Origin: Candidatus Bathyarchaeia archaeon
Lineage (GTDB): Archaea; Thermoproteota; Bathyarchaeia; Bathyarchaeales; DTEX01
Assembly (NCBI GenBank): GCA_038820405.1
Contig: JAWAXL010000001.1
Location: 1,208-65,207 of the forward strand
Length of the DNA: 64,000 nucleotides
Reading direction: 5' to 3'
The position numbers and the translations under genes were made by a program. The notes beneath the pieces are model-generated. The model had not been told where the DNA came from and did no database searches. It saw only the letters and a program-made list of their open reading frames with translations. This document shows, one piece after another, positions 37,919 to 48,099 of this stretch (positions are counted from its first letter, which is position 1; each line of letters starts with the position of its first letter).

Positions 37919-40900
37919 TTACTTGAGAAAGTCTGAGAGATTATACTGTCTAGCACCCTTCCCACTTTCAAACAGTGAATTTATCTCCTCCTTAATTAGA
38001 GATAGACGTTGGGCATAATACTCAAAAATACCATATTTTCTAACTAGGCGCCAAGCATCCTCCAAATATTTCTCAATAGTTCCCCTATGAACAGTTAGAG
38101 TCAGTTCGCCACCACATTCAGTGCAAACACCTTTAAGCGGCACGCGCCTAAATCGCCTATTGCACCTCTTACACCTAAAGCTTTGTGTTGCAAATGCCCT
38201 TAGATTTCCGGATATATCTCGAAGGAAGTGTGTGTTCAAAACAATCTCAGCTACAATGCGTGCATCAACGGCCTTAATCTTCTCTGCCAAGCCCAGCTGT
38301 GCATTTAGTTTATCAGTCATGCGCTTTAAAGTCTTATATACGCTTTCTCGGTTACAATTTTCAATGCTTGATGTTGGGACTGTAAACATTAGGCCTTTAA
38401 GGCGTAGCTCGGAATTAAGTCTATGCTTTACAGTATCAATAAGGTTCGATATGTCCCTAGCCTGAACTCTTTCAAAAGTTTTCCTATAGAACTCAAGGGG
38501 ATATCTACCTGCAACATCAAATTCATGTGCCTGTCTCTGAACCTCCTCTGGAACAACAGCGCGGATGATGAAGAGTGGTGTGTCCATTATCCCGCCTATC
38601 TGGTCTGGAATATACTCCTTAGAAAAGTTTAAGAGGGTATCTAAAGCCAGCACAATGCTATCCTCATCTCCATCACAGTCCCTACGTTTGGCTGAATGCC
38701 AGAAAGGATGTGCAAAACATACATTTAACCTGGTGAAGCCTATTATCCTGCCTAAAACCCCAGCGCATGTGTGCGGGGCTATCCCTATAATTATCTTGCC
38801 AATCAAATCTTGGGGTCTACTAACTCTATAATATGGTGGGAGCTCATATACTTTCTGAAGCAGTTCATCTATGAAGTTGGCAACGGCCACAAGATACTCA
38901 GCGCACTTCCATGGTATTATGACGTCCTGAACCTTAAGCTCACAGATCTGCTCTGGATCATTTAATGGATTACCTAAATAGTCATGAGTGTACCCTAGCT
39001 CCCGAAGTTTCTTAACCGAAATGCCTATTTCGGAGGGCTTAAAATGTGTTAGAGGTGCATTAGTCGTATCGAACCTTATTGTGCCATCTTTATAAACATA
39101 GAGGTTATACTTGGCTCTTAGAATACCTTTCTCAATTGGCTCTGGAATACGGAGTTTATTAGTTAGACCCTTAACTCCCTTAACCTCCTCAGGTCTAAAA
39201 CCAACTTTTTGGCAGGCTTCCTCAATTAAATCCTTAATGGATATTACCTGTGGGCAGAAGCTCCTTGTCTCAACATTGCATACAGGGCAAACATTTAGTG
39301 AGAGCTCTCTGCCACATTTTGGACAAATGAGTCTGAGATTTGTTTCCAAGCCGCATTCCGTACAGAGTCTTCTGAACGTTAGTTTTCGGCATTTTGAGCA
39401 AATTCTGCTGACTAGATCAACCCTAATGGTTCCCTTTTCATAAGCCTTCATTAGGTCTCTTCTGGCTCCACCGCTTAAACCAACTGGAAATAGAACGTGG
39501 ACTGGTGGCTTCATTTCACGCTCCTTAGCCTTTTCAGGCCGGCCAACCCTAGCGCCTATAAATGTTGGCGCCTTATCCTTAATGACGATTCCACTCAACG
39601 CCATTAGATTATCCAGGACTGACAAATCTTCAGAAATTATATGGTTCGAATTATATACCCCAAGAGAGAAGGCAAATGCGTGAGCATCGATCCCCTCAAT
39701 AACTATTTTATTATCATTAATTTTATGGGGAATGCATATCTCCTCAAGGGCTCCCTTCACGTTGAGATTAAGCGCTCCAGATACCTTGATTATAATATCC
39801 TCCTCATAAATTATGTCAGATGAGAGCAACCACTCTCTGATCATTTTAAGCTGTTTAACGTCAATATTAGACCAGAAGAAAGTGTATAAGGGGTGTAGTG
39901 GAATATTGAGCGCCTTACTCAATATTATAGCCTCCCGAACGCCCGGCTTATTATTAAATGGGTCTTCCATGAGAGCCCTTAGGAAAGAAGGGGAAAGACC
40001 AATCTTCGAGGCAGCCTCCTCAATGTTCCCATTGAACTCTTTCTTAATAGCTTCTCTAAGCTCCTCGGACCAAAACTCCTCAGTGTAGCTGGCTGGCAGA
40101 AGCTCCCTATTATTGTAAAGGAAGTCCCCAAAACTTATTAAAATATCTCCAAGAAAGAGGATCTTTTCAATATTTCTCTTCACAACCTCAATATTTTCAT
40201 AAGAAACTTTAACTACTGATCCGTCCCTCAGCTTAACGATCGGTGGTTCAATGTAATCCACTGGCATAACAATACCCGCTTTCCCAGGAGCTTCGATCTT
40301 AAGCTGCGTTCCACCAGCAAGAAAGTTCTGGAGGACTACCATTGTAAGCGGGTGAACCCCAAGCGCTGAGAGACCAGTATTTCTCGACCTACCATAGCGA
40401 AGTCTAAATCCACCCCTAGCCGAGGGGAAGCATAGTATAGGTCTTCCGGCGGGAACCTCCTCTATAAATCCAACTGAGGAAGCATTTGCCGCACCAGCCT
40501 TAATCTCCTTAAGCCAATCCCAGCCTTCAATCCCAAGATCCCTAACTACTGCTAGAACTTTAGCGGCTCTCCCAATAATCCCATCATTTACAACTCTAAG
40601 CGCTCCCCCTCTAACGCGGTTCGTCTCTATGCGTGGCAGATTCCTATATAACGTGACTTCAATCGGATCTGATGGAATTCCAGTAATCTCAACTGGAGTG
40701 TTCCTTAAAGCGAATCTAATCTGCTCATCAGAGACACTATATTGAAAGTTTCCAACCTCACGTTCATAGAGGCGAAGCTCCTCAATAAAACGCTCTATCT
40801 CCTCTTCAGTCGGCTTATACCTATCTAGGCGTAACAACTTACGGACAAAATCCGCGATTACTGGCGTGAGAGCTGCCTCTGTCCCCCCGGCTGATCGTAT

Positions 40901-41374
40901 TGGTCCGGCAAAATATACAGCCAGATATTTTGATCTATCAGCGTTCGTTTTTATCTTAATCTTAGCAATGCCCTCCGTATAAACAGCTACGGTTACGCCC
41001 TCAGTTAATATTGCGAGGGCCGCCCTAATTGCTAAATCTGCAGCCATCTCTATGTCCAAGTTGCCGAACTTTCCAAGAACGATCTCTTCAGCTATCTTAA
41101 AGGCAGCCCTCTCCTTCAATAATTCGGCTTTGGTTAACTTTTTTATTCTCCTCGCCAAGCCAGGCAATCCAATAAGGCTCTCGACTAGGCTGGCTAGGTC
41201 ACTTATTATATCTATTTCTGGATATGGTTTCGGATCAATCCCTTTAGCCCTAGCTTTTCTAGCAACATCATAGAGTTCTTCTAACGATCGAAACATCTCC
41301 ATAAAATACTTTTGGTATTCTCGGGCTACATTATTTGGAACTTCCATTAGATAATCCTCTGCTTTACTCGGCAT
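37919..41374 (-). CDS. dp2: DNA polymerase II (PolD) large subunit DP2
   Basis: 1151 aa. N-terminal YF..M...L..LY..A..ARAKGIDP pattern, multiple Zn-finger Cys clusters (CSKCRK..CTECG, CPKCG..CPVC, CKRCNRRF..CTECGG) and DGDEDS. Length is consistent with no intein. ATG 41347 is an alternative start. Confidence 0.95.
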   Translation of the reverse strand: MPSKAEDYLMEVPNNVAREYQKYFMEMFRSLEELYDVARKARAKGIDPKPYPEIDIISDLASLVESLIGLPGLARRIKKLTKAELLKERAAFKIAEEIVLGKFGNLDIEMAADLAIRAALAILTEGVTVAVYTEGIAKIKIKTNADRSKYLAVYFAGPIRSAGGTEAALTPVIADFVRKLLRLDRYKPTEEEIERFIEELRLYEREVGNFQYSVSDEQIRFALRNTPVEITGIPSDPIEVTLYRNLPRIETNRVRGGALRVVNDGIIGRAAKVLAVVRDLGIEGWDWLKEIKAGAANASSVGFIEEVPAGRPILCFPSARGGFRLRYGRSRNTGLSALGVHPLTMVVLQNFLAGGTQLKIEAPGKAGIVMPVDYIEPPIVKLRDGSVVKVSYENIEVVKRNIEKILFLGDILISFGDFLYNNRELLPASYTEEFWSEELREAIKKEFNGNIEEAASKIGLSPSFLRALMEDPFNNKPGVREAIILSKALNIPLHPLYTFFWSNIDVKQLKMIREWLLSSDIIYEEDIIIKVSGALNLNVKGALEEICIPHKINDNKIVIEGIDAHAFAFSLGVYNSNHIISEDLSVLDNLMALSGIVIKDKAPTFIGARVGRPEKAKEREMKPPVHVLFPVGLSGGARRDLMKAYEKGTIRVDLVSRICSKCRKLTFRRLCTECGLETNLRLICPKCGRELSLNVCPVCNVETRSFCPQVISIKDLIEEACQKVGFRPEEVKGVKGLTNKLRIPEPIEKGILRAKYNLYVYKDGTIRFDTTNAPLTHFKPSEIGISVKKLRELGYTHDYLGNPLNDPEQICELKVQDVIIPWKCAEYLVAVANFIDELLQKVYELPPYYRVSRPQDLIGKIIIGIAPHTCAGVLGRIIGFTRLNVCFAHPFWHSAKRRDCDGDEDSIVLALDTLLNFSKEYIPDQIGGIMDTPLFIIRAVVPEEVQRQAHEFDVAGRYPLEFYRKTFERVQARDISNLIDTVKHRLNSELRLKGLMFTVPTSSIENCNRESVYKTLKRMTDKLNAQLGLAEKIKAVDARIVAEIVLNTHFLRDISGNLRAFATQSFRCKRCNRRFRRVPLKGVCTECGGELTLTVHRGTIEKYLEDAWRLVRKYGIFEYYAQRLSLIKEEINSLFESGKGARQYNLSDFLK

Positions 41375-41675
41375 GAATCCTACAGAGAATAATTGTATTC
41401 CATTTTTCTATGGGATGACCCATAATCCTCTCATAAGTCCTCTTAGCGATCTCTTTTCTTTTCTCGACACATACTTTACATACATTATGTCTCATATCTG
41501 AGGGACCATCACATTGACCACAGTTTAGGAGTAAAGACTCGCCAAGCCCCCTAAGTGTAGTCCAAGCGTACTCACGCTCATCATACTCAGGCTCAAAGTC
41601 CGGCCAAATATCATATATATCTTCTTTACCTAGAACCTTCTTCAATGCCTCAAAATATCGCTCAAAGGAGGTCAA
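41364..41675 (-). CDS. small CxxC..CxxC Zn-ribbon protein, function unknown
   Basis: 103 aa containing NCGQCDG..x9..CKVC. A 4-nt overlap with the upstream GGGPS stop, and it overlaps or abuts the DP2 start. No family recognised. Confidence 0.5.
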   Translation of the reverse strand: MTSFERYFEALKKVLGKEDIYDIWPDFEPEYDEREYAWTTLRGLGESLLLNCGQCDGPSDMRHNVCKVCVEKRKEIAKRTYERIMGHPIEKWNTIILCRIHAE

Positions 41676-42460
41676 GGGCTGTCCACTCCTTTAAATTTAG
41701 TCTTCACCCCCTCTTTTATACCCATGATTACCTCATTAAGTTTGTTTCTAATATTCTCCATCTCCTCATCCTCAATTATTGTCCCGGTTACCACTATATC
41801 AGCGCCAGATTTCACAGCCTCTTTGGCCTGAAGACCATTTCTTATGCCTCCACCAACAATTAGCTTTATGGATATTGCATCCTTAACCATCCTAATCATA
41901 TGTGCAGGTACTGGGTGGCTAGCCCCTGATCCAGCCTCAAGATAAACAAATCTCATACCAAAGAATTCAGCGGCAAGTGCATGAGCAACGGCTAACCCAG
42001 GCTTATTATATGGAATTGGACAAGCTTTACCGATAACTCCTGTTGAGCCGCCCTCTCCAATAATTATATATCCAAGAGGAATTGTCTCTAAACCCAGTTT
42101 CTTGATTACAGGTGCGGCGAGAACTTGAGCTCCTGATATAAAGTATGGATCAGCTGAATTGAGAAGTGACATGAACCATATTGCATCAGCGTGCTCACTG
42201 ATAGCGGTTATGTTATTTGGAAATAATATGACTGGAACGCTCACATTCTCTTTAACATACTTAACAATCTTGTTAAACATCTCCTGGGATATTATTGTTG
42301 TTCCGCCAATCATTATTGCTGATGAACCTAGAGACTCGCTCTCACAAGATATTAAGGCTGCAGTTTCCGGAGTGACCTTCTCTGGATCGATAAGTGTTAT
42401 GTGGATTGCTCCCTCATTATTAATCCTATCCATCAAGTACCTCTCTACTTTACCAACCAT
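41672..42460 (-). CDS. geranylgeranylglyceryl phosphate synthase (PcrB/GGGPS family)
   Basis: 262 aa TIM-barrel with LIDPEK.., YLEAGSGA and LIVGGGIRNG..A..SGADIVVTG motifs. Confidence 0.88.
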   Translation of the reverse strand: MVGKVERYLMDRINNEGAIHITLIDPEKVTPETAALISCESESLGSSAIMIGGTTIISQEMFNKIVKYVKENVSVPVILFPNNITAISEHADAIWFMSLLNSADPYFISGAQVLAAPVIKKLGLETIPLGYIIIGEGGSTGVIGKACPIPYNKPGLAVAHALAAEFFGMRFVYLEAGSGASHPVPAHMIRMVKDAISIKLIVGGGIRNGLQAKEAVKSGADIVVTGTIIEDEEMENIRNKLNEVIMGIKEGVKTKFKGVDSP

Positions 42461-42479: not shown

Positions 42480-42722
42480 TTAAGTCCCATAAAATTCATC
42501 TATAAGTTGGCAGTACACGTCCACTTCTTTGAAATAAGGTTTTACCACCATTTCCTTGACGTAGCCACAATTCAGGTTACCGCAACGAACTGTCGCCTTC
42601 CTTTCATTATCCTCCTCAGTGATCTCAATCCTAATAGACTGTTGATTACATTTAGGACATAAGAAGACCTTGGGTATTCTCTTCTTTAGTACTTTTACTA
42701 CCTTTCTACGCTTCCTCCCCAT
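42480..42722 (-). CDS. elf1: transcription elongation factor Elf1 homolog (Zn ribbon)
   Basis: 80 aa. Basic N-terminus MGRKRRK.., then FLCPKCN..x17..CGNLNCG. This is the pattern of archaeal Elf1. Confidence 0.7.
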   Translation of the reverse strand: MGRKRRKVVKVLKKRIPKVFLCPKCNQQSIRIEITEEDNERKATVRCGNLNCGYVKEMVVKPYFKEVDVYCQLIDEFYGT

Positions 42723-42851
42723 TCCAGCATCACACCACTAGACAATTACATAGATAGCTACTTTTAGTTCTTAAAAATTTGGGGATGCTATGAAAAACTA
42801 AATATCTTTCTTTTCGTATACAAAGGTGTATCCAAAAGAGGGGAGAATATC

Positions 42852-43346
42852 TTGACAGAGCCCTCACTAAAAGAAGAAATACAAGTATGGTTAACAAGTC
42901 TCAATAAAGACCCAATTTTCAAAACGCTACTAAAAAACAGCAATTTAACTAAAATACAAGCAGAAACATTCTTAATAGACATTTTAGCAGAAAAAATAAC
43001 CAATAAAAAATTAGTTTATGAGGAGAAAGCAAAACTGAGGTCAATAAAATCTGGAGTGAGCCGCGGATCATTTAATAGAACACTAGCTCAGGCAAGAAGA
43101 AATATAATTAGATCCATTTACACAATAATATTGCTAGGTTACCTAGGAATACTAGATGACCCTCGCCTAGAACCCTATATCACAATAGCTAATAAAATCA
43201 AGGCCTATGCTGAAAAGTATAGGGAAATTTGGGAGATTAAAAGAATAGAGGAAGATCAAATAAAGGTGCTACAATCGCTTCAAAATGAGATAGAAAAAAG
43301 ATTGTTGTGCCTATCAAGGCCAAGTGTGCTCTCGGGAAAAATGTGA
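42852..43346 (+). CDS. putative HTH DNA-binding protein (Tfx/sigma-r4-like segment)
   Basis: 164 aa, with TTG start after AGGGGAG. LTKIQAETF.. and GVSRGSFNRTLAQARRNIIRSIYT resemble Tfx-type HTH. The helical C-terminus is not recognised. Confidence 0.4.
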   Translation: MTEPSLKEEIQVWLTSLNKDPIFKTLLKNSNLTKIQAETFLIDILAEKITNKKLVYEEKAKLRSIKSGVSRGSFNRTLAQARRNIIRSIYTIILLGYLGILDDPRLEPYITIANKIKAYAEKYREIWEIKRIEEDQIKVLQSLQNEIEKRLLCLSRPSVLSGKM

Positions 43347-43373
43347 CATCACTGTTACATCACGTGACATCAC
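43343..43373 (+). repeat. three tandem 10-11 bp GTGA-CA-TCAC sites
   Basis: GTGACATCAC t GTTACATCAC GTGACATCAC. The first copy overlaps the stop codon of 42852..43346. Each unit is an inverted half-site pair GTGA/TCAC. Confidence 0.7.
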
Positions 43374-43477
43374 GTTTAAACGATAGATCCATTGATGAGG
43401 GAACAATAATCCAAAACGTAAGGCATTTAAGCCTTAATTAACTGAAATATTGCTGTGATCACAAGTATGATTTGAAT

Positions 43478-43507
43478 GTGATGTGTGATGTGACAAGGTG
43501 ATATCAT
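43478..43507 (-). repeat. inverted set of GTGA-N2-TCAC-like sites over the SD/start of 43506..44171
   Basis: GTGATGT GTGATGTGAC aag GTGATATCAT, overlapping AAGGTGA and ATG 43506. A compressed GTGATCAC lies at 43455-43462. These are reverse-complement relatives of the 43343-43373 units. Confidence 0.6.
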
Positions 43508-44171
43508 GGATATTATATTGATGTTTATTTATGCGATTCTTTTCTCCATAACCTCAGCCTTTTTTCTCATCTATTTTAAGCGACTTAAAAGTATCAATCT
43601 TGAATATACGAGACTTAAAAGGGCATTTGAGGATATAATCTTCAGCTTTAATAAGGATCTCCAAAAGATAGAGGGGCAAATTCAGGAAATTTCAGGAAGA
43701 ATTAGTGCGGAGGGAGCAAGAGATGAAATGAGATCCTTATTTGACTATCTTAAAAGTAAATTGGATGAATTAATCGGATTTAAGGAAAGGGTCTCCGCCG
43801 AGATCGATAAACTATTGGCTAAATATAATGAGATTGAGAATAAAGTTGGGAATTTGAAAGTAATTGGAAATGAAAGAAAATTAAGATTCTATGATGATAG
43901 ATCGGAAGAATACCTCTTACCTAAATTAAAGGAGAATAAACCTCTTGCCCCCTTAACGGCTACTGAGTTAAGGGTTTTAGAGATCCTAGCAAGTGAAGGA
44001 GAGAAAACTGTTCCTGAAATAAAGGATAGAATTGGTCTCACAAGAGAGCATACAGCGCGGCTATTGAAGAGCTTATATGAAAGGGGATACGTGGAAAGGG
44101 TCTCTAATAGGATACCCTACGTATACCGTTTAGCTAGGGAAATGGATGAAATTATCAAGAAAAAGGAATAA
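43506..44171 (+). CDS. membrane-anchored coiled-coil protein with C-terminal winged-helix (MarR/TrmB-like) domain
   Basis: 221 aa. N-terminal TM IILMFIYAILFSITSAFFLIYF, a heptad-like middle, and C-terminal LTATELRVLEILASEGEKTVPEIKDRIGLTREHTARLLKSLYERGYVERV. Confidence 0.55.
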   Translation: MDIILMFIYAILFSITSAFFLIYFKRLKSINLEYTRLKRAFEDIIFSFNKDLQKIEGQIQEISGRISAEGARDEMRSLFDYLKSKLDELIGFKERVSAEIDKLLAKYNEIENKVGNLKVIGNERKLRFYDDRSEEYLLPKLKENKPLAPLTATELRVLEILASEGEKTVPEIKDRIGLTREHTARLLKSLYERGYVERVSNRIPYVYRLAREMDEIIKKKE

Positions 44172-44176
44172 CTCTT

Positions 44177-44587
44177 TTACAGAGACTTTATAATCTCTTT
44201 TAATTCCTGTGATGCTAACCTGAAGAAAACCTTACCTCCATTTTTAGTTTTAAGTAGCATGCCTCTCTTAGCAAGCCTAGAAAGGTATGTTGAGATAGCA
44301 CTTAAGCTGATTGGTTCATTAGTTTCCCTCTCATATACTTCTTGAACATCCTTTGCTGAGAACCATGTTACAGAAAAGCTTCTCTTGACAATAAGGAGAA
44401 TTTTATCCATCTTTGAAAGATCCCAAGAGTATTCGCTTGTTGGCTCTACAACAGGCATCCCACCGAGTAATTCAACAATATCGAATATTTTCTGAACCTT
44501 CTCCCTAGTAACCCTACCCTCAAAACCTATAACGTACTTGTTTCCAGACTCATCGTAAACCTCTACTTTCACCTTTCTAACAGGCAA
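44177..44587 (-). CDS. small protein with C-terminal winged-helix-like domain, adjacent to oriC
   Basis: 136 aa, TTG start after GGTGAAGG. The C-terminus ISLSAISTYLSRLAKRGMLLKTKNGGKVFFRLA is wHTH-like. The N-terminal domain is unrecognised. Confidence 0.45.
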   Translation of the reverse strand: MPVRKVKVEVYDESGNKYVIGFEGRVTREKVQKIFDIVELLGGMPVVEPTSEYSWDLSKMDKILLIVKRSFSVTWFSAKDVQEVYERETNEPISLSAISTYLSRLAKRGMLLKTKNGGKVFFRLASQELKEIIKSL

Positions 44588-44785
44588 CTAAACCTTCACC
44601 GCAATCTCCAGCAATTAAGAATTACACTTCACAAGTTATAAATTATTCGGTTAAATGCTATTCATAAAAAAAGAAAAAATAAAGTTATTTTCAGAATATA
44701 ACAAAAAATTTCAAAGATCTTAGTTAACAAAGTTAACATCAAAAGCGTTGATCCAAATGAAGAAAATAAAGAATTCCTTTTTCTT

Positions 44786-44812
44786 TTCCAGTGGAAACGG
44801 AGGGGTGAGTTC
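44786..44812 (+). repeat. ORB1 origin recognition box
   Basis: TTCCAGTGGAAACGGAGGGGTGAGTTC, a dyad plus GGGGT string resembling the archaeal ORB consensus. Confidence 0.8.
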
Positions 44813-44954
44813 TTAACAAAAAATTAAGTATAAAAAAATGTCTTAATTAAAAAATATGGAAGAAAACAGTTGTTTACATCTCCGGGTTAACAGATGTTCA
44901 CATAACAATTAACACGATTCTTCAGGATATCTTTGCGCTCTTAAGAATATCATC

Positions 44955-44984
44955 AGAGAGACCCCACCATTTCCATTGGAAAAT
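44955..44984 (-). repeat. ORB2 origin recognition box (inverted)
   Basis: The reverse complement reads ATTTTCCAATGGAAATGGTGGGGTCTCTCT, near-identical to ORB3. Confidence 0.8.
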
Positions 44985-45039
44985 AACTCTGCAGTTCCCC
45001 TCAATATGCTTGGAGGTAAAAATACATTTTTTGGCTTAT

Positions 45040-45180
45040 GTTAACTTTACTTATAAATTAAAATTTTTGAATTTGTTATACAAATTTTTGTATAAATGAT
45101 GTTAAATATTATTTTTTCTTCCAATAAATGGGAGACTGTTTTTCCAACATATAATGAAATATATCATAATCTTTAAAACT
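45040..45180. other. AT-rich duplex unwinding element with mini-ORB-like half sites
   Basis: TTATAAATTAAAATTTTTGAATTTGTTATACAAATTTTTGTATAAATGATGTTAAATATTATTTTTT, followed by TTCCAATAAATGGGAG (45119-45134) and TTTTCCAACAT (45140-45150). It lies between the inverted ORB2 and ORB3. Confidence 0.65.
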
Positions 45181-45181
45181 G

Positions 45182-45214
45182 TTTTCCAATGGAAATATAG
45201 GGGTGGGTCTCTCT
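45182..45214 (+). repeat. ORB3 origin recognition box
   Basis: TTTTCCAATGGAAATATAGGGGTGGGTCTCTCT. Confidence 0.8.
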
Positions 45215-45324
45215 TTCTTTAGGACTTTTTACTCTTTAATCTATTTTTTTATACGGGAGCCCTTAATTTTTAGCAAAACACTCCTTATTTTTGCTGACCG
45301 CTGAAGAGGGGTTAGCGAAAGAGT

Positions 45325-46560
45325 ATGAAGAAGACTGACATTCTAGATAATGTATTTGCTCATTTTCTTAAGGGCTCCAGAATATTTAGGAATAGAGAAG
45401 TTTTAAGACATGATTATGTTCCGGATTATCTTCCGCATAGAGAGGAAGAGATTCTTCGTTTGGGTGAGATTACCGCTCACACACTTAGGGGCTCGCCATG
45501 CTCTAACGTTTTTATTTATGGCAAAACTGGTACTGGAAAGACTGCTGTTACTAAATTCGTTTTAAATAAGATTGCCCAGAAGGCAAAGGAGATTAGATCT
45601 CCAGTTAGAGTATGCTTTGTAAACTGCCGTTTGGCTGGAACAGAATATAGAATCTTAGCATCTCTCTGTTCAAGCATTAATGAGAAGGTTCCCTTTACTG
45701 GGTTAGCTGTTGGGGAGCTTTTTGAGAGGTTCAGAAAAAGCCTTGAAAGTCAAGGAATAATTCTTCTTTCCGCATTGGATGAAATTGATGCGCTGGTTAA
45801 GATGCGCGGCGATACATTGTTATATGAGCTCACAAGAATAAATGAGAATTTGAGCAGAAGTAAGGTTTCAATTATAGGTATATCGAATGACCTAAAATTT
45901 AAGGAGTTTCTTGATCCAAGAGTTCTGAGTACACTAAGCGAGGAAGAGATGGTCTTTAAACCGTATACCGCTGAGGAGATTCAGGATATTTTAATGGAAA
46001 GGGCTAGGATGGCCTTTCATGATAATGTATTAGACGAGGGCGCCTTAAAGTTATGTGCAGCACTGGCTGCTGCCGAGCATGGTGATGCTAGAAGGGCTCT
46101 TGATCTCCTGAGAGTTGCTGGCGAGATAGCAGAGCGAAGAGGTGATAAAGAAATTTTAGAGGAACATATTCGTGAGGCTCAGAAGAGGATAGAGCATGAC
46201 AGGGTCTATGAGAGTATAAGGAGTTTGCCAACACACTCAAAAATAGTTCTTCTGAGCACCTATCTGCTCAGCAAATTTGATCCAGACCGATCAATGACTG
46301 GAGAAATTTATAATCTCTACTCAGAGATTTGTGATCAGCTTGGTATAGGAGCATTAACTCAGAGGAGGGTAAGTGAGCTAATAAATGAATTGGATGTTAT
46401 GGGGCTTTTAAACTCACGCATCGTGAGTCTTGGGAGGTATGGCCGAACAAAGAAGATAAGTCTAAGTATCCCGCGAAAAATCATCACGGAAGTTTTTTCT
46501 GAAGATGAAATATTGAAGAGCATGATGAATTATAAGCCTAGATTCCTGACCTCTAACTAG
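45325..46560 (+). CDS. cdc6: Orc1/Cdc6 replication initiator
   Basis: 411 aa. VPDYLPHREEE, Walker A YGKTGTGKT, Walker B LLSALDEID, sensor regions, and a C-terminal winged helix (RRVSELINELDVMGLL). Confidence 0.95.
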   Translation: MKKTDILDNVFAHFLKGSRIFRNREVLRHDYVPDYLPHREEEILRLGEITAHTLRGSPCSNVFIYGKTGTGKTAVTKFVLNKIAQKAKEIRSPVRVCFVNCRLAGTEYRILASLCSSINEKVPFTGLAVGELFERFRKSLESQGIILLSALDEIDALVKMRGDTLLYELTRINENLSRSKVSIIGISNDLKFKEFLDPRVLSTLSEEEMVFKPYTAEEIQDILMERARMAFHDNVLDEGALKLCAALAAAEHGDARRALDLLRVAGEIAERRGDKEILEEHIREAQKRIEHDRVYESIRSLPTHSKIVLLSTYLLSKFDPDRSMTGEIYNLYSEICDQLGIGALTQRRVSELINELDVMGLLNSRIVSLGRYGRTKKISLSIPRKIITEVFSEDEILKSMMNYKPRFLTSN

Positions 46561-46572
46561 CGTCTACTTTTA

Positions 46573-48099
46573 CTAAAGGGAAGTAAAGTTTATTGGGGTA
46601 ACCTCTAGAGTATTTAAGTTAATTATTGGTATTATGCCCGGGTTTGGTATATGTCCCATCTCCTTTTGATATTCTGTTTGTTCCTGAAATGCTCCCGAAT
46701 TGACTACGAGCACACCTCTGTAAATGCTATATTTCATTAAGTGTACGTGCCCTGCATGAAATATGTCTGGAACATGCTCTATGACTAAATGATCAATCTT
46801 TTCAGGGGCTATCATGGTTCTCATACCATAGGTTGGTGCTAAATGCCTACACTGTAAGAGAATCTTCATAGCTTCATCTGGCGATTGGAAGCTAATGTTC
46901 GGGATGGATGCTATAACATCATCTAGACTTCTTCCATGTGTTAGAAGAAAAGTTACATTATGTAGGCTTATAACTGATGGATCACCTAGCATATGAACGT
47001 TCCCCATCTTATAGAGGGGCTCGGCATAATCCTTAGGAATAGCTGGCTGAGGCAGGGCTCTCCTAGTTGCATCATGATTCCCGGGTATAATTATTATCTC
47101 AATATACTCGGGCACCTCCCTGAACAGATCTGCTGCAACATCATATTGTTTGTAAATATCTTTTATTTCAAGCTCCTCGTGTTGCTGTGGATATATTCCG
47201 ACACCATCAACGATATCTCCAGCCATAACTAAATACTTGACCCATCCAGCTATCTCCCTAAGGCGGTTATTACCAATCTCCCCCCTCAACCACGATAAAA
47301 ATTTCTTAAATACCTCTTTCATGAACATCTTGCTTCCAACATGTAGATCAGATAGTAGCGCCGCGTGAATTGGTATAAGGGCTCTCTTTGGTTTTCTCAT
47401 CGGCACTTCTGGCAATATTATATCCTTTACTATGAGGAAATTATCTTTCCCCTTTACAGCAATTATACAGAGAACTTGATCCAAAAGAATTTTTTGAGCT
47501 TTCGTATACACCTCACAGCTATCGGCTGGAACAAAAACTATTGCTTGATCCTCTAAATCTTCAACTTTGAAGAAGATTCCACGTTTTGTCTCACGTTTAT
47601 CCATAATTATGCAGATAATCTTTACATTGGAGTTTTCAGGGGCTTTCAAGGCATCTGCTATGGTGCCAGCATCCTTTATGTCTATTCGACTCTTCAATAT
47701 CTTGCTTATCTTTTTAAACCGGCTCCTAAAATATTCTACACAGTCATTGAGGGATCCCGTTGCACCGATCCTATTAGTCGGGTCACTTATAATCTTTATC
47801 TCGGGCTCAACTTCTTTTGCCCGGGGACTAAAAAATAATTTGCTAGTGATCCCATTAGTGGTTCCGGAAACCTCTAATAGACCATTTTTCTTAATCTTTT
47901 CCTCTATGATCTTTCGGGTTATAAACAGCGGTTTATTTGGGGATTTCTCCATTTCCTTAAGCATATGTTTAAGAAGAAAATCTAGGTTCTCTTGATTTGA
48001 TATAGCCTTTAAAAACTCAAATGCCTCCTTATCAACTTGATAACCAGCCTCGACGATTAAAGATATTGCCCTTTTAAGGTTTTCCTCACTCTCTGGCAT
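46573..48099 (-). CDS. dp1: DNA polymerase II (PolD) small subunit DP1
   Basis: 508 aa. OB region plus calcineurin-like phosphodiesterase motifs LSDLHVGS, AGDIVDG, PGNHD, GHVH. Confidence 0.93.
   Translation of the reverse strand: MPESEENLKRAISLIVEAGYQVDKEAFEFLKAISNQENLDFLLKHMLKEMEKSPNKPLFITRKIIEEKIKKNGLLEVSGTTNGITSKLFFSPRAKEVEPEIKIISDPTNRIGATGSLNDCVEYFRSRFKKISKILKSRIDIKDAGTIADALKAPENSNVKIICIIMDKRETKRGIFFKVEDLEDQAIVFVPADSCEVYTKAQKILLDQVLCIIAVKGKDNFLIVKDIILPEVPMRKPKRALIPIHAALLSDLHVGSKMFMKEVFKKFLSWLRGEIGNNRLREIAGWVKYLVMAGDIVDGVGIYPQQHEELEIKDIYKQYDVAADLFREVPEYIEIIIIPGNHDATRRALPQPAIPKDYAEPLYKMGNVHMLGDPSVISLHNVTFLLTHGRSLDDVIASIPNISFQSPDEAMKILLQCRHLAPTYGMRTMIAPEKIDHLVIEHVPDIFHAGHVHLMKYSIYRGVLVVNSGAFQEQTEYQKEMGHIPNPGIIPIINLNTLEVTPINFTSL

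Follow-up and report, generated by a model that had tools for sequence, protein, structure and literature searches.

Conserved GTGAT arrays, putative operators of a membrane-anchored winged-helix protein, near the replication origin of Bathyarchaeia

In a 64-kb stretch of DNA from a Candidatus Bathyarchaeia archaeon (contig JAWAXL010000001.1; the whole stretch is called the window below), we analyzed arrays of GTGAT-like repeats at 43343-43507, which lie between the gene of a conserved 164-aa protein, p164 (open reading frame 42852-43346, + strand), and the directly following gene of a 221-aa membrane-anchored protein with a winged helix-turn-helix (wHTH) domain (43506-44171, + strand). The repeats are real and far from chance, and judging from comparison with related sequences the arrays are conserved across the archaeal class Bathyarchaeia. 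We favor, with moderate confidence, the reading that the arrays are DNA binding sites of one sequence-specific protein, most likely the downstream wHTH protein, which would control its own promoter. This reading is built on what the sequences show: a conserved motif with a defined grammar, found at one location exclusively, next to a promoter-like block, and the domain make-up of the protein.

The density of the repeats stood far above the background of the window. A stretch of 170 bp held 11 GTGAY/RTCAC pentamers, compared with a mean of 0.39 over the 64 kb and three pentamers in the runner-up stretch. At most six were reached in 200 Markov shuffles, and the Poisson probability of the cluster was ~5e-13. 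Five of the six ACATCAC heptamers of the window also fell inside 43343-43507. An earlier note on this DNA, made from the letters alone (the original prediction), had proposed opposed arrays of GTGA-N2-TCAC operator-like sites here, and the enrichment of the motif over composition was borne out by these counts.

On the + strand, the left array (43343-43373) consists of GTGACATCAC (43343-43352), a single t, GTTACATCAC (43354-43363) and again GTGACATCAC (43364-43373). The TGA stop of the p164 reading frame, bases 43344-43346, lies within its first unit, and the array is located 83 to 53 bp 5ʹ of the first T of the predicted TATA box. It is of the type called site A below, in a variant plan of three tandem 10-bp dyads instead of the strict 19-bp composite found in relatives, from which its middle unit, a degenerate palindrome, deviates. 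The downstream array opens with GTGATCAC (43455-43462, + strand) at the predicted transcription start, 29 bp past the first T of the TATA box. A degenerate unit, ATGAT (43467-43471, + strand), starts 12 bp after this unit and 11 bp before the following one, and aligns with an invariant TGTGAT of relatives. The right array (43478-43507, + strand) reads GTGATGT (43478-43484), GTGATGTGAC (43485-43494), aag and GTGATATCAT (43498-43507), so that its units are GTGAT at 43478, GTGAT at 43485, GTGAC at 43490 and GTGAT at 43498, then ATCAT over the ATG. It covers both the Shine-Dalgarno-like GGTGAT (43497-43502) and the ATG at 43506.

The layout on both sides reads in the sequence as it had been proposed, with corrections. 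The two clusters had been placed about 105 bp apart; the right cluster begins at 43455, with the degenerate ATGAT at 43467, and the gap is ~81 bp. The description as GTGA-N2-TCAC dyads suited the left units, GTGATCAC and, roughly, GTGATATCAT, whereas the right side is composed mostly of direct GTGAT/GTGAC repeats. We also observed that the inverted repeat of the window reaches ~12 nt past the units, since 43367-43385 (ACATCACGTTTAAACGATA) and 43466-43484 (TATGATTTGAATGTGATGT) are 79% complementary. This extension past the units was not seen in relatives.

Relatives of the wHTH gene were fetched from assemblies and metagenomes, and conservation statistics were calculated only from protein-selected, non-redundant loci, leaving out the motif-selected loci of the genome scan described below. 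The wHTH proteins of the 69 protein-selected regions were 32-100% identical to that of the window. Each of these regions contained 7-15 pentamer units (median 11 in 269 bp). In the 68 non-redundant protein-selected regions, GTGAT/ATCAC was the most enriched 5-mer (14-fold; 556 observed, 40 expected), followed by TGTGA (11-fold). Alignment of the five closest relatives, whose wHTH proteins were 61-65% identical, showed islands of identity between unalignable spacers: the left array, AAAaCATAAGnnATTTAAG, TTGTGAT, TGTGATTT, GTGAT and GGTGATrTcATGG. TTGTGAT was invariant in this alignment and corresponds to the unit at 43455 in the window. The block of the B recognition element (BRE) and TATA box, and the Shine-Dalgarno sequence with the ATG, were likewise kept in the five close relatives.

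GTGAYRTCAC occupied the position of the left array in 63 of the 69 loci; the complete 19-bp composite was there in 52. In 65 of the 69, the stop codon of p164 was the TGA of a GTGAY unit, so that gene end and site are locked at single-base register. Among 142 non-redundant loci whose flanks were long enough, p164 itself immediately preceded the wHTH gene in 141. Overlap of the array with the ribosome site was lineage-specific, and distant relatives have a GGAGG Shine-Dalgarno sequence well downstream of the end of the array. All relatives examined had the arrays in this position, with drifting spacers between the units, which agrees with the conservation that the original prediction had named as a check.

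The unit logo was (T/c)GTGAT. Units were combined convergently as GTGAYRTCAC at an offset of 5 bp (n=117) and directly at 7 bp (n=141) or 10-11 bp (n=78); at 7 bp, the commonest direct offset, the unit reads nATCACA. Of a 19-bp composite, Y-GTGAYRTCAC-A-n-RTCAC-R, 113 copies were counted in the loci against ~0.002 expected. It occurred on the + strand at the p164 stop in 52 copies (site A), on the - strand deeper in the intergenic region in 40 copies, upstream of the BRE/TATA in many lineages, and, in 16 copies, on the - strand ~1.1 kb before the p164 stop. Blocks hold two or three units at 7-bp phasing, with other offsets interspersed. Fixed offsets of this kind are typical of protein-DNA recognition, and the recognized unit would be the pentamer (T)GTGAT. 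The proposal that each unit is itself a palindrome for a wHTH dimer was given up, because the general unit is this pentamer at convergent 5-bp and direct 7- and 10-11-bp offsets, and a classical MarR dimer would need more than a half-site offset of 5 bp.

The third composite copy, on the opposite strand ~1.1 kb upstream of the p164 stop, lies in many lineages within the coding sequence of an aminotransferase, at the amino acids DVMSLITEKSRVMIL. It was located at L067 2579-2613, L088 2579-2644 and L185 4606-4624 (L numbers denote individual loci), and was found also in L031, L032, L036, L042, L043, L064, L081-L083 and L087. The copy was kept in loci whose aminotransferase gene is degraded or missing (L088, L082, L081, L083), and also at a breakpoint in the rearranged chromosome CP070828.1, which suggests that a DNA element is being preserved within coding sequence. 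For distant lineages, a "second operator 400-650 bp upstream of p164" was considered as a promoter element and rejected, as it sits in the opposite-strand aminotransferase coding sequence. The aminotransferase-embedded site fits the 19-bp composite exactly, and we keep it as an unexplained third site.

The arrays bracket a predicted archaeal core promoter of the wHTH gene at 43416-43433 (+ strand), where a BRE-like sequence, ACGTAAGGCA, is followed by the TATA box TTTAAGCC (TTTAAG at 43426-43431). From the conserved block AAAaCATAAGnnATTTAAG in close relatives and from RTAA-n-TTTAAR, which recurs family-wide, we infer this BRE/TATA promoter and the transcription start. Automatic TATA calling misplaced the promoter in some loci; placement was therefore assessed under a fixed position constraint, with shuffles as the control. 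In 42 of the 69 loci, against 1.0 in shuffles, a GTGAY began 21-31 nt downstream of the first T of a TATA-like hexamer, at the distance where an archaeal transcript would start. In the window, GTGATCAC at 43455 is 29 nt from the TTTAAG at 43426. The downstream array then runs GTGAT-n2-GTGAT, followed by ATCAC units 10-11 bp apart. No oligo-T terminator was present between p164 and the wHTH gene in the window.

That the repeats behave as operator-type cis-elements, as originally proposed, is supported by this placement around a conserved BRE/TATA at the same position in relatives. The accompanying idea, that the spacing of the two clusters suits looping, found no such agreement: the distance from the upstream site to the TATA box ranged from <60 to >300 bp across lineages (some of the tabulated TATA calls are unreliable), and it indicates no fixed geometry.

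The composite was confined to this locus to a striking degree. One genome per species (596 Gb in total) was scanned for the strict 19-mer YGTGAYRTCACANATCACA, and at least 120 stretches matched, which are a sample and not a census; ~139 chance matches would be expected in such a scan by our own estimate. Among the matches listed, at least 101 stretches were archaeal, most of them named Bathyarchaeia and some Hecatellales or Bathycorpusculum, and a few differently labelled bins, one of them "uncultured bacterium", also carried the locus. The match lay at p164/wHTH in 100 of the 101 archaeal stretches listed. The remaining one, at 276.6 kb of CP070828.1, was a decayed copy of the third site at the rearrangement breakpoint. 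The 19 bacterial stretches listed had none of the genes and are chance matches. Further copies were found neither in the 64-kb window nor in ~440 kb of flanks. As far as the strict 19-mer reports it, the composite belongs to a single neighborhood and does not mark a regulon dispersed over the genome; isolated weaker sites may exist elsewhere.

Of the genes next to the arrays, only the wHTH gene encodes a clear DNA-binding domain. Its product begins with one transmembrane helix (residues 3-21, Kyte-Doolittle 2.47). In the AlphaFold2 (AF2) model, a single long helix of ~100 residues extends to residue 125 and is followed by a disordered linker (126-151) and a C-terminal winged helix (152-220). 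The winged helix matched the Pfam families MarR_2 (3.5e-9), TrmB (7e-9) and MarR (1.4e-8), and the top Foldseek matches were of the MarR family. No effector domain was seen by Pfam or in the AF2 model, and no solved TrmB chain was detected by sequence search at E up to 1. In the recognition helix, LTREHTARL, the residues R180, E181, H182, T183, R185, L186 and K188 were invariant and A184 nearly so among 49 family members.

The original prediction had taken both flanking genes and the next one to encode proteins of DNA-binding type. This was right for the downstream gene, which encodes the MarR/TrmB-type winged helix, but is unsupported for p164. More than 770 homologs of p164 were found, all named hypothetical, with no Pfam or NCBIfam family; its AF2 model is all-alpha (pLDDT 82), the best sequence match in the PDB had an E value of 0.31, and no fold was matched by Foldseek below E 0.6. 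It is the more conserved of the two proteins, with identities of 48-84% against 35-64% for the wHTH protein in the same loci, and it carries an invariant basic stretch, GVSRGSFNRTLAQAR, sited in a continuous helix of 28 residues. For the third gene, which encodes p136, a conserved small protein recognized as a syntenic open reading frame between the wHTH gene and the origin (44177-44587, - strand), the claim had to be weakened. The C-terminus of p136 gave Pfam/NCBIfam hints of a wHTH (PaaX, BlaI, Fur, ArsR) and its profile matched a BlaI-like regulator best in the PDB (E 0.02), but the family hints were all sub-threshold.

Taken together, these observations support an operator-like reading, in which the locus would be a regulator-operator pair with unusual grammar. 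We infer that the wHTH protein is the binder and that regulation is negative: bound to the downstream array (~+1 to +50), the protein would block recruitment or escape of RNA polymerase, and the upstream composites may make occupancy more cooperative or stop transcription from running on out of p164. Repression from sites at +1, downstream of the TATA box, is the usual mode in archaea (PMC4158304). The wHTH gene is directly beside the sites, which cover its own predicted core promoter or start. The recognition helix, invariant but for A184, matches the invariant motif, which counts for the wHTH protein as the binder, as does the lack of a GTGAT motif in the upstream region of p136 (after 44588). 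A 19-mer exclusive to the locus fits a dedicated local regulator. There is also precedent, in that TrmBL1/Tgr recognizes TATCAC-N5-GTGATA and acts before the BRE/TATA or at +1 (PMC4158304), and membrane-bound archaeal regulators such as ArnR exist (PMC6396743).

Several observations weigh against autoregulation by the wHTH protein. The half-sites are not paired at about a helical turn: convergent units mostly stand at an offset of 5 bp, which, like the direct offset of 7 bp, misfits the usual MarR footprint with its half-sites ~10 bp apart. Simple autoregulation would not need as many as 11 or more units, which are spread over as much as 1.5 kb in three to four blocks, and the upstream composite is fixed to the p164 stop instead of the TATA box, which a pure promoter operator would not predict. 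p164 and p136 accompany the arrays in every genome, so co-occurrence cannot tell the wHTH protein, p164 and p136 apart. The arms in the window are able to pair as RNA, the scan covered the strict 19-mer among the matches listed, so that weaker single sites elsewhere in the genomes are possible, and the membrane anchor, the long coiled coil and the constant closeness to oriC fit plain autoregulation poorly.

The gene order around the arrays is archaeal in type. Upstream are the genes of the PolD large subunit (37919-41374), a 103-aa protein (41364-41675), GGGP synthase (41672-42460) and Elf1 (42480-42722), followed by p164. Downstream of p136 lies oriC, with three origin recognition boxes (ORB; TTTTCCAnTGGAAA...GGGGT) at 44784-44806 (+), 44961-44983 (-) and 45182-45204 (+), then Orc1/Cdc6 directly downstream of it (45325-46560) and the PolD small subunit (46573-48099). 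This is a textbook archaeal origin, with ORB boxes flanking very AT-rich DNA just 5ʹ of Orc1/Cdc6. The origin had been said to begin about 1.1 kb away; the intergenic region that bears it does start at 44588, whereas the first ORB box, at 44784, is ~1.28 kb off. Orc1 was located 1.0-4.1 kb downstream in 72 of 77 loci. A relation of the arrays to the ORB boxes was rejected, because these are unlike GTGAT and no GTGAT cluster lies within the origin. As read from the sequences, the link of the arrays to the origin is one of conserved synteny only.

Further observations concern the neighborhood in relatives. In mid-distance lineages, the intergenic region between Elf1 and p164, upstream of p164, has 4-7 ATCAC units (L015 3156-3229; L011 3185-3234; L022 3169-3221; L024 2982-3050; L051 2910-2952; L060 2879-2936), and p164 may be under the same control there. 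The lineage of the window has a single ATCAC (42729) in this region. Some lineages have two additional genes separating the wHTH gene from p136 (L088 4696-7228; also L031, L037, L049, L053, L063 and others). They encode a 519-aa P-loop ATPase (GMTGSGKT) and a 328-aa protein, and by sequence inspection they look like a HerA/NurA-type pair. Complete loci of the Bathyarchaeia type (p164, Elf1, and GGGP synthase or wHTH, p136, Orc1) were also found in contigs of bins labelled Heimdallarchaeota (L145), uncultured bacterium (L103), Nitrososphaerota (L207) and Thermoproteota (L206), which are probably mis-binned or loosely labelled. In the closed chromosome CP070828.1, the cluster is split (L108 and L185; ~241-248 kb and 272-280 kb): p164, wHTH, p136, Orc1 and the PolD small subunit are together, and Elf1, GGGP synthase and the PolD large subunit are ~30 kb off. 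An assembly gap adjoins the breakpoint.

Another possibility is a centromere-like, origin-proximal membrane tether, in which the wHTH protein and the arrays would fix the origin to the membrane for segregation or organization. At 1-4 kb from oriC, the protein would cover a GTGAT site that is unique and made of several blocks, and would act like a centromere binder without a ParA-type motor, perhaps with p164 as a partner, and autoregulation would be a side effect. The misfits of offsets, unit number, stop anchoring, membrane anchor with coiled coil and closeness to oriC keep this explanation alive, although we consider it unlikely. Plasmid centromeres can double as operators, as in pSM19035 (PMC9499535), and the core and 7-bp phasing of the arrays recall the WATCACW heptads of that centromere, which likewise overlap promoters (PMC9499535). 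The composite is limited to one chromosomal neighborhood per genome among the matches listed, its unit blocks are spread over up to ~1.5 kb, and the link to Orc1 was kept even in the rearranged CP070828.1. A protein with a transmembrane helix and a helix of ~100 residues would suit such a role, and its wHTH fold matches that of the archaeal centromere-binding AspA, at the generic wHTH level only. However, neither the 64-kb window, in which deviant Walker A motifs are lacking, nor the flanks that were inspected showed an ATPase of the ParA/SegA type, and the heptads do not form long contiguous runs. The synteny with oriC may simply reflect ancestral gene order, some transcription factors anchored in the membrane have ordinary regulatory roles (PMC6396743), and the exact placement of an array on the predicted start site speaks for control of transcription. 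It is also conceivable, but again improbable in our judgment, that a different DNA-binding protein (p164, p136 or a regulator encoded elsewhere) occupies the arrays and that the wHTH gene is merely a target. The synteny of p164 and p136 is no less strict than that of the wHTH gene, p164 has the invariant basic stretch GVSRGSFNRTLAQAR, one composite is locked to its stop codon, an extra ATCAC array precedes it in mid-distance lineages, and p136 shows weak wHTH hints. On the other hand, p164 has no recognizable DNA-binding domain or fold, its basic stretch being part of the 28-residue helix with no PDB match, p136 lacks the motif in its upstream region, and an element exclusive to one locus speaks against a distant global regulator.

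The pairing of the two arms could also mean that the repeats act as RNA. In a read-through transcript from p164 to the wHTH gene, the AUCAC left arm and the GUGAU right arm would form a hairpin that hides the Shine-Dalgarno sequence and the AUG, and would control translation or processing. The fold of 43335-43520 does reach -55 kcal/mol (z = -5.3) with the arms paired, GGUGAU included; the inverted repeat of the window (43367-43385 and 43466-43484) is longer than the units, and no T-run terminator separates the genes. Conservation nevertheless follows the unit sequence and not the pairing. At the variable positions of the two inverted composite copies, likeness within a locus did not exceed that between loci (0.31 and 0.33 for position 11, 0.44 and 0.56 for position 12). 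The spacers and the registers of the arms vary among relatives, and in distant lineages one copy is upstream of the TATA box, another is antisense in a different gene, and the GGAGG Shine-Dalgarno sequence is far off. The 10-11-bp phasing is a feature of the DNA helix, and 42700-45400 gave no Rfam match at E up to 1. Neither conserved pairing with compensatory changes nor a known family of structured cis-regulatory RNA was seen, and the stability in the window would be a by-product of an inverted motif. Because the units are conserved without pairing, their register drifts, they are phased and Rfam gave nothing, the units are read as protein-binding DNA sites, and we regard control by an RNA structure as very unlikely. 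A related candidate, mimicry of the anti-Shine-Dalgarno sequence (AUCAC resembles the 16S 3ʹ end, GUGAU lies in the Shine-Dalgarno sequence), was rejected, as it holds in close relatives only and distant ones use GGAGG far from the arrays. Two opposed arms of ~40 bp about a core of ~80 bp also resemble, superficially, the terminal inverted repeats of a small mobile element such as a miniature inverted-repeat transposable element. A mobile element or a chance low-complexity repeat is hardly credible, however, given a cluster probability of ~5e-13 and the same syntenic position throughout an archaeal class. The window has a single cluster and no other copy in 64 kb, and the archaeal matches listed in the genome scan lie in one neighborhood, with no dispersed copies among them.

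Bathyarchaeia are archaea that abound in sediments; all their genomes used here derive from metagenomes, and our literature search found no characterized transcription factor or cis-element for them. A sharp motif grammar shared class-wide, together with an obvious candidate binder, makes this locus a candidate for the first regulator-operator pair of Bathyarchaeia. Its single place per genome beside the origin, and a candidate binder with a membrane anchor and a coiled coil, make it also a candidate for origin-membrane attachment, which is still an open question for most archaea. If it proves to be only an autoregulated repressor, it would be a well-documented but ordinary case.

Among known systems, the Thermococcales glycolytic motif (TGM) and its regulator TrmBL1 (Tgr) share the half-site TATCAC/GTGATA (PMC4158304), and ATCAC/GTGAT half-sites were found here as well. 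Both systems have a winged helix of the TrmB/MarR type (Pfam TrmB 7e-9 here) and sites before the BRE/TATA or at +1, and TrmBL1 autoregulates. In contrast, the TGM is a single divergent ATCAC-N5-GTGAT dyad, whereas the units here are convergent or direct and form arrays of ~11; the divergent pair at offset 10 that corresponds to the TGM layout was outside the 12 commonest divergent spacings in the 68 regions. TrmBL1 is cytosolic, with an N-terminal TrmB domain and a C-terminal sugar-binding domain, unlike the C-terminal wHTH behind a membrane helix and coiled coil. The two also belong to different phyla, and the TGM marks a regulon while the element here is at one locus.

The parS sites of Omega, the ParB of plasmid pSM19035, have the ATCAC core in 7-bp WATCACW heptads in direct and inverted orientation (PMC9499535), a core and phasing that the arrays share. 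The Omega arrays overlap promoters, including that of the gene of the binder, and serve as operator and centromere in one (PMC9499535). Omega is, however, a ribbon-helix-helix protein, a family and fold not recognized among the neighbors here. It uses 7-10 contiguous heptads, of which at least four must be gapless, instead of blocks of 2-3 units with mixed offsets, and it works with a ParA partner, for which the 64-kb window offers no deviant Walker A motif. Omega parS belongs to a bacterial plasmid and the arrays to an archaeal chromosome, and the common ATCAC core is probably a coincidence. ArnR/ArnR1 of Sulfolobus acidocaldarius are membrane-anchored archaeal regulators with paired short repeat boxes near the BRE/TATA (PMC6396743). 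They have an N-terminal HTH, HAMP and sensor domains and two C-terminal membrane helices, whereas the order is reversed here, with one N-terminal membrane helix, a coiled coil and no sensor. Their boxes, TCGAC-N5-GTCGA, are upstream of the TATA box of the target flaB and are not arrays in the own promoter (PMC6396743).

The classical MarR operators resemble the locus in the MarR-fold wHTH, in sites over the own core promoter and in the predicted negative autoregulation. MarR dimers bind one or two palindromes of 16-20 bp with half-sites about a helical turn apart, unlike the 5-bp dyad offset and multi-unit arrays here, and the AF2 model has the membrane helix and long coiled coil in place of the usual dimerization helices. 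AspA of pNOB8 is similar in that a small wHTH protein covers repeated sites in front of the operon that encodes it, and AspA appeared at Foldseek ranks 22 and 37. In parC of plasmid R1, two repeat arrays flank the promoter. The fold match to AspA is generic, with MarR scoring better, and no gene of a partner ParB/ParA or ParM is present here. The site of AspA is one palindrome from which the protein spreads, and AspA and parC/ParR are both plasmid systems.

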